Assembly (NCBI RefSeq): GCF_003334305.1
Contig: NZ_QOWS01000003.1
DNA: 64,000 bases
Source of the DNA: Escherichia coli
GTDB taxonomy: Bacteria > Pseudomonadota > Gammaproteobacteria > Enterobacterales > Enterobacteriaceae
Direction: 5' to 3' (one strand)
Shown: in pieces, positions 33,815 through 35,667 of the stretch
Numbering within the stretch: the first letter of the stretch is position 1
Layout: each line of letters begins with the position of its first letter
Made by a program: the position numbers and the translations under genes
Notes under the pieces: model-generated
Seen by the model: only the letters and a program-made list of their open reading frames with translations
Database searches by the model: none
What the model was told of the DNA's origin: nothing

Positions 33815-34888
33815 GTGGGGCAGCGAATACCTGTAACGCTTGGTAATATTGCGCCGTTGTCGCTAAGGCCGTTCCAGCCTGGACGAATAGCTCTGGTGTG
33901 CGAAGGCGGCGGACAGCGTGGAATTTTCACGGCTGGCGTGCTGGATGAGTTTATGCGCGCGCAGTTTAATCCTTTCGATCTTTATCTCGGCACATCTGCC
34001 GGGGCGCAGAACCTCTCGGCGTATATCTGCAATCAGCCCGGTTACGCGCGCAAAGTCATCATGCGCTATACCACAAAACGCGAATTTTTCGATCCATTGC
34101 GCTTTGTCCGTGGAGGAAATCTTATCGATCTCGACTGGCTGGTGGAGGCCACCGCAAGTCAGATGCCGTTGCAAATGGATACCGCCGCGCGGTTGTTTGA
34201 CAGCGGCAAATCGTTTTATATGTGCGCCTGTCGTCAGGATGACTACGCGCCGAATTACTTTTTACCAACCAAACAAAACTGGCTGGATGTGATTCGCGCC
34301 TCCAGTGCGATACCTGGCTTTTATCGTAGCGGAGTGTCGCTGGAAGGCATTAACTACCTGGATGGCGGGATCAGTGATGCGATTCCGGTTAAAGAGGCGG
34401 CAAGGCAGGGCGCTAAAACGTTGGTCGTCATCCGCACTGTGCCGTCACAAATGTACTACACGCCGCAGTGGTTCAAACGCATGGAACGCTGGCTGGGTGA
34501 CAGTAGCCTGCAGCCGCTGGTCAATCTGGTGCAGCATCATGAAACCAGCTATCGTGACATTCAGCAATTTATTGAGAAACCACCGGGCAAGCTGCGGATA
34601 TTCGAAATTTATCCACCGAAGCCATTACATAGTATCGCGCTTGGCAGTCGGATTCCGGCGCTGCGTGAAGACTATAAACTTGGGCGTTTATGCGGTCGTT
34701 ATTTCCTCGCCACGGTTGGCAAGCTATTAACTGAAAAAGCGCCGCTTACCCGCCATCTGGTGCCAGTGGTGACGCCGGAATCGATCGTTATTCCGCCTGC
34801 GCCAGTCGCCAACGATACGCTGGTTGCCGAAGTGAGCGATGCTCCGCAGGCGAACGACCCGACATTTAACAATGAGGATCTGGCTTGA
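33815..34888 (+). CDS. yjjU: Patatin-like phospholipase family protein
   Basis: GTG start 33815 after aggaagg RBS; GGGxRG (CEGGGQRG) and GTSAG patatin motifs, DGG near residue 190. Confidence 0.8.
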   Translation: MGQRIPVTLGNIAPLSLRPFQPGRIALVCEGGGQRGIFTAGVLDEFMRAQFNPFDLYLGTSAGAQNLSAYICNQPGYARKVIMRYTTKREFFDPLRFVRGGNLIDLDWLVEATASQMPLQMDTAARLFDSGKSFYMCACRQDDYAPNYFLPTKQNWLDVIRASSAIPGFYRSGVSLEGINYLDGGISDAIPVKEAARQGAKTLVVIRTVPSQMYYTPQWFKRMERWLGDSSLQPLVNLVQHHETSYRDIQQFIEKPPGKLRIFEIYPPKPLHSIALGSRIPALREDYKLGRLCGRYFLATVGKLLTEKAPLTRHLVPVVTPESIVIPPAPVANDTLVAEVSDAPQANDPTFNNEDLA

Positions 34889-35667
34889 TTTGCCGTTTTA
34901 TCGATACCCACTGCCATTTTGATTTCCCGCCGTTTAGTGGCGATGAAGAGGCCAGCCTGCAACGCGCGGCACAAGCGGGCGTAGGCAAGATCATTGTTCC
35001 GGCGACAGAGGCGGAAAATTTTGCCCGCGTGCAGGCGTTAGCGGAAAAATATCAACCGCTTTATGCCGCATTGGGGTTGCATCCGGGGATGTTGGAAAAA
35101 CATAGCGATGTGTCTCTTGATCAGCTACAGCAGGCGCTGGAAAGGCGTCCGGCGAAGGTGGTGGCGGTGGGGGAGATCGGTCTGGATCTCTTCGGCGACG
35201 ATCCGCAATTTGAGAGGCAGCAGTGGTTACTCGACGAACAGCTGAAACTGGCGAAACGCTACGATCTGCCGGTGATCCTTCATTCCCGGCGCACACACGA
35301 CAAACTGGCGATGCATCTTAAACGCCACGATTTATCGCGCACTGGCGTGGTTCACGGTTTTTCCGGCAGCCTGCAACAGGCCGAACGGTTTGTACAGCTG
35401 GGCTACAAAATCGGCGTAGGCGGTACTATCACCTATCCACGCGCCAGTAAAACCCGCGATGTCATCGCAAAATTACCGCTGGCATCGTTGTTGCTGGAAA
35501 CCGACGCGCCGGATATGCCGCTCAATGGTTTTCAGGGGCAGGCTAACCGCCCGGAACAGGCCGCCCGGGTATTTGCCGTGCTGTGCGAGTTGCGCTCGGA
35601 ACCGGCGGATGAGATTGCCGAAGTGTTGCTTAATAATACGTATGCGGTGTTTAGCGTTAGTGGGTAG
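34885..35667 (+). CDS. yjjV: TatD-family metal-dependent hydrolase / DNase
   Basis: 260 aa; N-terminal DTHCH motif; start overlaps yjjU stop by 4 bp. Confidence 0.8.
   Translation: MICRFIDTHCHFDFPPFSGDEEASLQRAAQAGVGKIIVPATEAENFARVQALAEKYQPLYAALGLHPGMLEKHSDVSLDQLQQALERRPAKVVAVGEIGLDLFGDDPQFERQQWLLDEQLKLAKRYDLPVILHSRRTHDKLAMHLKRHDLSRTGVVHGFSGSLQQAERFVQLGYKIGVGGTITYPRASKTRDVIAKLPLASLLLETDAPDMPLNGFQGQANRPEQAARVFAVLCELRSEPADEIAEVLLNNTYAVFSVSG

Follow-up and report, generated by a model that had tools for sequence, protein, structure and literature searches.

The yjjU-yjjV gene pair of Escherichia coli as a probable vertically inherited, stress-induced housekeeping operon

A patatin-like lipase gene that runs into a TatD-type hydrolase gene raises the question of what holds the two together: a role as effectors in defence, a shared pathway, a physical complex, or common regulation. 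We analysed such a pair, yjjU and yjjV, in a stretch of 64,000 nucleotides of Escherichia coli DNA (hereafter the window; contig NZ_QOWS01000003.1 of RefSeq assembly GCF_003334305.1), for which an earlier note, made from the sequence alone, had raised the speculation that a coupled lipase and nuclease are an effector-like combination. We think it likely, at a probability of about 0.72, that yjjU-yjjV is a vertically inherited, stress-induced housekeeping operon whose enzymes share regulation and are not a sensor-triggered effector pair.

The two open reading frames lie exactly where the earlier note had placed them (Table 1), and its gene names agree with RefSeq, which annotates on identical DNA osmY, ytjA, yjjU (patatin-like phospholipase family protein), and yjjV (metal-dependent hydrolase), followed by the convergent yjjW and yjjI; the osmY and ytjA neighbourhood that it described is confirmed by the same annotation. 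Positions 33400-35900 are 100% identical to E. coli strain M8 and to several further strains. The overlap between the yjjU stop and the yjjV start is likewise real, but its letters, which had been given as ATGA, read TTGA, with a TTG start. From the in-frame stop at 34873 up to the DTHCH motif of YjjV there is no other ATG, GTG, or TTG codon, and 7 nt 5' of this TTG is the Shine-Dalgarno sequence GAGGA. Judged from these letters, the end of yjjU appears to be a translational-coupling junction, and YjjV would be made together with YjjU because the 4-nt overlap and the internal Shine-Dalgarno sequence couple their translation.

Table 1. Positions of the features of the yjjU-yjjV locus (nucleotide coordinates of the window; residue numbers of the protein named)
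Feature	Position	Strand	Remarks
ytjA intrinsic terminator	33722..33755	+	hairpin AAAGCCAGTCC-loop-GGACTGGCTTT, T-rich tail; parts ytjA from the yjjUV unit
yjjUV promoter (inferred)/5' leader	33756..33814	+	10-genus alignment
Conserved motif TTGCGTTAC in the yjjUV leader	33769-33777	+	10-genus alignment
yjjU Shine-Dalgarno AGGAAGG	33803-33809	+	precedes the GTG start
yjjU CDS	33815..34888	+	patatin-like acyl hydrolase by sequence; GTG start, TGA stop, 357 aa
Patatin domain of YjjU	aa 27-195, nt 33893-34399	+	Pfam
Oxyanion GGGQRG of YjjU	aa 31-36	+	
Nucleophile Ser61 of YjjU, in GTSAG (aa 59-63)	nt 33995-33997	+	
Asp183 of YjjU, in DGG (aa 183-185)	nt 34361-34363	+	
DUF6363 of YjjU	aa 234-305, nt 34514-34729	+	Pfam
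C-terminal tail of YjjU	aa 313-357, nt 34751-34885	+	disordered and variable
yjjV Shine-Dalgarno GAGGA	34874..34878	+	within the final yjjU codons; read from sequence
Start/stop overlap TTGA, 4 nt	34885..34888	+	yjjV TTG start and yjjU TGA stop
yjjV CDS	34885..35667	+	TatD-family group II (HxH) metal-dependent hydrolase; TTG start, 260 aa
yjjV-yjjW intergenic region, convergent genes	35668..35779	.	palindromic units, e.g., GCCTGATGCGACGCTTGTCGCGTCTTATCATGCCTACA at 35708-35745

YjjU matches the Pfam families Patatin (PF01734; E=1.5e-23) and DUF6363 (E=3.6e-22), and the patatin signature that had been claimed for it is present in all three parts (GGGQRG, GTSAG, and DGG). It belongs to the patatin family by its G-G-G-x-[KR]-G motif, by the Ser-Asp dyad in G-x-S-x-G and D-G-[GA], by the profile match, and by its alpha/beta fold. 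A search of 1.84 billion cluster representatives supplied 38 sequences with 28-65% identity to YjjU, and in an alignment of these with YjjU we found G31, G32, G59, S61, G63, D183, and G184 invariant. Because the oxyanion glycines, the nucleophile, and the catalytic Asp are all retained, the family would seem to consist of active enzymes. Pfam finds no DNA-binding domain in YjjU, a hydrophobic segment is absent from both YjjU and YjjV, and the searchable literature yielded no enzymatic assay or biochemical report on YjjU.

The fold of YjjU resembles those of many patatin-like enzymes. In a structural comparison it scores 24.4 against the "Patatin" lipase/ligand/substrate complex 9kh6, 23.1 against CapV (8zr9), 22.4 against PlpD, 22.1 against CapE, 21.4 against plant patatin, and 19.4 against iPLA2-beta, and the TM scores from Foldseek are 0.50-0.57, with 15-20% identity. 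CapV and CapE, the CBASS effectors, are formally the best structural matches, marginally ahead of PlpD and patatin; the likeness to them lies at the level of the fold, with no specific kinship.

YjjV matches TatD_DNase over the entire Pfam model (PF01026; aa 6-257, model positions 1-253 of 253, E=3.4e-75), scores 571.4 bits against the NCBIfam equivalog NF008522 (cutoff 481), and is near-identical over aa 1-258 to PDB 1ZZM_A, "putative deoxyribonuclease YjjV" (E=5e-166); each of the 120 relatives listed carries PF01026 alone. The DTHCH motif that had been noted at its N terminus is found at aa 7-11 and contributes H9xH11, with E97 (GEIGLD), H133 (LHSR), H157 (VHGF), and E205/D207 (ETDAP) following. 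Its HxH, Glu, His, His, and Asp ligands are intact, 1ZZM provides the TIM-barrel, and published work assigns YjjV to TatD group II (HxH) (PMC10085689). The same paper describes a weak 3'-exonuclease activity on ssDNA and an AP-endonuclease activity on dsDNA, and reports "very little nuclease activity" in vitro, for which its authors blame poor solubility; a tatD yjjV ycfH triple mutant is viable and sensitive to H2O2 (PMC10085689; PMC4176340). Since the nuclease activity in vitro is very low, DNA may not be the true substrate of YjjV.

The pair is core, as the earlier note had it: the locus is found in 5424 of 5426 complete E. coli genomes, in every case flanked by ytjA and yjjW. We further ran a pattern derived from the YjjU alignment over one genome of each bacterial species and searched the resulting 80 loci with the window proteins. 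In all 67 loci from Enterobacterales (Enterobacteriaceae, Erwiniaceae, Yersiniaceae, Hafniaceae, Morganellaceae, and Budviciaceae), yjjU is followed immediately by yjjV on the same strand, and the usual gene order is prfC-osmY-(ytjA)-yjjU-yjjV. When the true stop and start codons were located, 48 of the 67 loci had a 4-nt NTGA overlap, 18 had a spacing of -14 to +29 nt, and one could not be placed. Within the overlap, yjjV starts with TTG in Escherichia and with GTG or ATG in others, and the overlap is kept despite a range of 331-419 aa in the total length of YjjU; its retention across about four families may indicate that the co-expression is not just an accident. Independent expression or a lack of co-conservation, which the earlier note had named as grounds for dropping its idea, are thus not what Enterobacterales present, given adjacency in every locus and papers that list a single transcription unit.

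Outside this main set the association disappears. No TatD neighbour occurs within ~5 kb in any of 13 YjjU-family loci (Plesiomonas, Zobellella, a gammaproteobacterium, Laribacter, Paludibacterium, Solimicrobium, Shewanella, three species of Photobacterium, two of Aliivibrio, and Moritella), nor in six metagenomic or genomic contexts of distant YjjU relatives, some of them contigs of 2-5 kb, which makes each of these negatives weak. The conservation of the pair and its context, which had been proposed as a check, therefore holds within Enterobacterales for both co-conservation and order and fails in the loci sampled beyond them, and we rejected recurrence of the YjjU-TatD pair elsewhere. Given the lack of TatD in the outgroup loci, the patatin-TatD adjacency appears to go back to a single origin at the base of Enterobacterales, followed by vertical inheritance. 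A fusion of the two genes (Rosetta stone) was also sought and rejected, as the sole long homologue, the 638-aa representative protein P0135, joins an alpha/beta hydrolase instead.

P0135 is similar to a protein of two Aliivibrio species in which a YjjU homologue and a PldB-like lysophospholipase form one fused chain of 639 aa. In three Photobacterium species the PldB-like protein, a relative of lysophospholipase L2, is encoded immediately 3' of the YjjU homologue (308-314 bits, within a range of 248-314 bits for the Vibrionaceae partners against an equivalog cutoff of 362). A distant member of the YjjU family sits in a fatty-acid modification cluster with an AMP-ligase, a desaturase, an ACP, a CMAS-like methyltransferase, and a thioesterase. 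Because of this PldB-like partner or fusion and the fatty-acid cluster in relatives, we infer that the substrates of YjjU are (lyso)phospholipids or similar acyl esters, i.e., that it takes part in membrane-lipid turnover.

Purifying selection on both genes is strong: in a comparison of E. coli with E. albertii, yjjU has a dN/dS of 0.045 and yjjV one of 0.081, like those of neighbouring housekeeping genes. We found no genuine copy of either gene by tblastn in plasmid and phage collections, and an association with mobile elements was rejected, the matches being "plasmids" of megabase size and pieces of chromosome entered under phage.

The terminator hairpin between ytjA and yjjU was spotted by eye and then supported by folding (-19 kcal/mol, z = -4.07, none of 200 shuffles equally stable), and it is kept in 9 of 10 Enterobacteriaceae with varying loop bases. 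A scan for promoter and terminator consensus sequences near yjjU gave nothing useful and missed this terminator because its T-run is interrupted. As the conserved hairpin lies upstream, yjjUV would have a promoter region of its own at the position given in Table 1, and the GTG start of yjjU is invariant in the alignment of 10 genera. On the 3' side, the palindromic units between yjjV and yjjW, which are putatively REP/BIME-like by their consensus, fold into several stem-loops (-48.3 kcal/mol, z = -1.87), and a megablast query spanning this stretch matched a median of 2 places per genome; the region is probably the 3' end or stabiliser of the yjjUV transcript. An Rfam scan of 33000-36000 returned no RNA family.

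Published data place the unit in the acid response. RpoD holoenzyme binds in the spacer between ytjA and yjjU by genomic SELEX (PMC3946193), and yjjUV is one transcription unit in RegulonDB, induced via the YdeO>GadE cascade (PMC4222967). GadE and GadX regulate yjjU, and general acid resistance suffers when yjjU is knocked out (PMC4918353); a further study treats yjjU as a putative regulatory gene whose knockout shifts growth rate modestly (PMC3469383). Knockouts are viable, with phenotypes in acid stress or growth rate only (PMC10085689, PMC3469383, PMC4918353), and the literature that we found reports no phage phenotype for yjjU or yjjV.

In its fullest form, the speculation of the earlier note would make yjjUV a chromosomally fixed immune or abortive-infection pair, in which phage infection releases or activates a lipase that attacks membranes together with a nuclease. 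Known defence systems use patatin lipases (CapV/CapE) and TatD-like nucleases (QatD) as effectors, CapV and CapE are the top PDB fold matches of YjjU, and PADLOC returns weak matches to a phospholipase effector, over aa 27-64 only, and to QatD, at 93.5 bits. However, the lipase matches span just the 38 residues of the generic stretch from the glycine-rich motif to GxSxG, the QatD score is what is expected of any TatD paralogue, and the fold ranking of YjjU is flat over all patatin families. The dedicated NCBIfam models are far from reached: YjjU scores 25 bits against the CBASS lipase model (CapV, NF041079; aa 27-64 only, cutoff 200) and YjjV 104.8 bits against QatD (NF041926, PADLOC PDLC02215; cutoff 230). 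The lack of other defence hallmarks, which the note itself had pointed out, is borne out by the neighbours osmY, ytjA, yjjV, yjjW, and yjjI, among which there is no CD-NTase cyclase operon, no QatA, QatB, or QatC, and no other sensor gene. Unlike accessory defence islands and mobile elements with their patchy distribution, the locus is at one fixed position in E. coli and syntenic in all 67 Enterobacterales loci, its "plasmid" and "phage" matches are mis-filed chromosomal records, its dN/dS is 0.05-0.08, and its knockouts show only the phenotypes given above. Because the models stay sub-threshold, partner genes and mobile copies are lacking, dN/dS is low, and phage-related phenotypes are absent, the effector-pair idea is unsupported; we rejected membership of yjjUV in a defence system, nothing that we found suggests an anti-phage system here, and we regard this account as extremely improbable.

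Two other accounts take the coupling of the genes as a sign of joint function. The pair might form a lipid-catabolic pathway in which YjjU deacylates a phospholipid and YjjV, which would then be no nuclease in vivo, cleaves a (phospho)ester that stems from lipid, such as a lysolipid product or a glycerophosphodiester. The slot 3' of the YjjU homologue, held in Vibrionaceae by the PldB-like lysophospholipase, adjacent or fused, is held in Enterobacterales by yjjV with its translational coupling conserved; the low nuclease activity of YjjV would fit, as would the place of TatD proteins among the broad amidohydrolase-type TIM-barrel hydrolases. A cyanobacterial TatD relative is reportedly a D-aminoacyl-tRNA deacylase (DTD3), an ester hydrolase (Wydau et al. 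2009), and we count it on the same side. Yet YjjV keeps the full TatD nuclease site and shows both of its published DNA-directed activities, and the lack of a TatD neighbour in the 19 YjjU-family loci outside the main Enterobacterales set confines the link to one lineage. We consider this pathway unlikely, and its evolutionary version, in which YjjV replaced the PldB-like partner in Enterobacterales and works with YjjU in stress-induced phospholipid breakdown on a lipid-derived (phospho)ester instead of DNA, quite unlikely.

Alternatively, YjjU could be a regulator, or a kind of chaperone, that controls YjjV or another target by forming a physical complex. Translational coupling often goes with stoichiometric complexes, the study of growth-rate effects cited above treated yjjU as putatively regulatory, and older annotations state that it "could work as a transcriptional/regulatory protein." The family-wide invariance of the YjjU dyad and oxyanion hole speaks for an active enzyme instead; the lack of a DNA-binding domain and the occurrence of the YjjU family without TatD in all other lineages sampled also count against this account. 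The prospect of a complex, and with it that of a joint pathway, was further weakened by an AF2 model of YjjU (residues 1-312) joined to YjjV by a 30-residue GS linker, computed from an alignment of 22 paired Enterobacterales and 21 unpaired YjjU relatives. Both domains have pLDDT mostly >90, and there is no confident YjjU-YjjV interface, because the pTM of 0.56 fits two independently placed domains; as a monomer model from a shallow alignment, without PAE, this is weak negative evidence, on which we set the physical complex aside. We hold a regulatory role of this kind to be very unlikely, and we infer that YjjU and YjjV share neither a pathway nor a complex.

We therefore return to the housekeeping operon as the preferred reading. 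A promoter just 3' of the ytjA terminator would give a single yjjUV mRNA, induced, according to published data, through the EvgAS>YdeO>GadE acid/stress cascade, and ribosomes ending at the yjjU TGA would reinitiate at the overlapping TTG, such that YjjV is made alongside YjjU. YjjU would be a soluble serine hydrolase of the cytoplasm with the patatin fold, a Ser61-Asp183 dyad, a GGGxRG oxyanion hole, and DUF6363 as a C-terminal helical domain; judging from its fold, its invariant residues, the DUF6363 domain, and the proteins paired with its relatives, it probably deacylates (lyso)phospholipids or similar acyl esters. YjjV is a TatD TIM-barrel two-metal phosphoesterase with an intact HxH/E/H/H/D site and the published weak 3'-5' exonuclease and AP-endonuclease activities, and the two would most likely be independent housekeeping or damage-clearing enzymes under common regulation.

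The genes, the operon, and the structure and activities of YjjV are already known, and the pair has little discovery value beyond the fact that yjjU is still a "y-gene." The lysophospholipase link in Vibrionaceae and the kept coupling to yjjV make YjjU a candidate for a deacylase of (lyso)phospholipids that works in the cytoplasm as part of the GadE acid-stress response. They also raise the question of whether DNA is the true substrate of YjjV. If YjjV did act on a lipid-derived ester, a TatD paralogue would have a physiological role other than that of a nuclease.

Among known systems, the closest is yjjU-yjjV of E. coli K-12 (b4377-b4378; PDB 1ZZM), with the same genes and the same flanks; the crystallised K-12 YjjV and that of the present strain are alleles a few residues apart, with no substantive difference. 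The YjjU homologues of Vibrionaceae belong to the same Patatin and DUF6363 family at 37-40% identity to YjjU but are paired with an alpha/beta-hydrolase and not with a TatD protein. QatD of QatABCD shares the TatD-family fold and aligns with YjjV over its full length, but the score is sub-threshold, yjjUV lacks QatA/B/C partners, and the yjjUV locus is not accessory. The TatD group II proteins YcfH, human TATDN3, and S. aureus SAV0491 have the TIM-barrel and the HxH, Glu, His, His, and Asp ligands in common with YjjV, and the 3'-exonuclease and AP-endonuclease activities reported for YcfH and TatD are those reported for YjjV (PMC10085689). Within this group, YjjV is nevertheless a separate paralogue with an equivalog model of its own and a much weaker activity in vitro, and it is the sole TatD paralogue of E. 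coli that is translationally coupled to a lipase gene.

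The adjacency and fusion of genes in Vibrionaceae provide a Rosetta-stone link between the uncharacterised YjjU patatin subfamily and lysophospholipid hydrolysis. At three Photobacterium loci (L076, L077, and L078), a PldB-like relative of lysophospholipase L2 lies directly 3' of the YjjU-family patatin gene, and at two Aliivibrio loci (L079 and L081), as well as in the YjjU-family representative protein P0135, the patatin and the PldB-like relative form a single fusion protein of ~639 amino acids. A more distant family member (35% identity), at locus L086 in an 8.5-Mb genome, is the first gene of a same-strand cluster that continues with an acyl-AMP ligase, a fatty-acid desaturase, an acyl carrier protein, a cyclopropane-fatty-acid-synthase-like methyltransferase, and a thioesterase.

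Within YjjU itself, the AF2 model shows the C-terminal tail (residues 313–357) as disordered, and this tail is confined to Enterobacterales. Total protein length varies from 331 to 419 amino acids; the last codons nevertheless keep the NTGA overlap with yjjV at 48 of the 67 Enterobacterales loci where yjjV directly follows yjjU. Some 40 nt 5' of the yjjU start, the motif TTGCGTTAC is conserved in 10 Enterobacteriaceae genera within a spacer that is otherwise variable among them; the motif may belong to a promoter or be the site of a regulator, perhaps GadE.

At locus L002, filed as E. coli strain SCPM-O-B-8794, prfC, osmY, yjjU, yjjV, yjjW, and yjjI each show a synonymous divergence of ~0.23–0.34 relative to the window strain. 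These values are well over those usual within E. coli, so the genome deposited under that species name probably represents a cryptic Escherichia lineage. Separately, yjjU dS against E. albertii is 0.71, about twice that of neighbouring genes.

RNA families were called at the Rfam gathering score, and the presence of the threonine operon leader means that the window crosses the point at which E. coli K-12 coordinates conventionally begin.

Coordinates of features in the window and at YjjU-family loci of other genomes
Feature	Position	Strand	Source
tRNA	27689-27772		Rfam
naRNA4 (REP-derived nucleoid-associated RNA), 3 copies	27912-27994, 48777-48855, 53173-53250		Rfam
Threonine operon leader	61869-61988		Rfam
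TTGCGTTAC motif	33769-33777		
YjjU C-terminal tail	34751-34885		AF2 model
REP/BIME-like units	35668-35779		
yjjW (activase of YjjI)	35780-36643	minus	
yjjI (glycyl-radical enzyme)	36615-38165	minus	
yjjW-yjjI pair	35780-38165	minus	
Photobacterium YjjU-family/PldB-like loci	L076:5967-6962, L077:6055-7032, L078:6009-6986		
Aliivibrio YjjU-family/PldB-like loci	L079:4998-6917, L081:4998-6917		
Distant YjjU-family member with its same-strand cluster	L086:4001-8837		

REP/BIME-like palindromic units occupy the gap between the convergent yjjV and yjjW, and they probably explain why the median number of places matched by the megablast query was 2 per genome. Beyond the gap, yjjW and yjjI overlap by 29 nt. 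Across the Enterobacterales loci this second pair is patchy: Escherichia, Citrobacter, Enterobacter, Kluyvera, and Edwardsiella carry it and many others lack it, whereas yjjUV is constant across the same loci.
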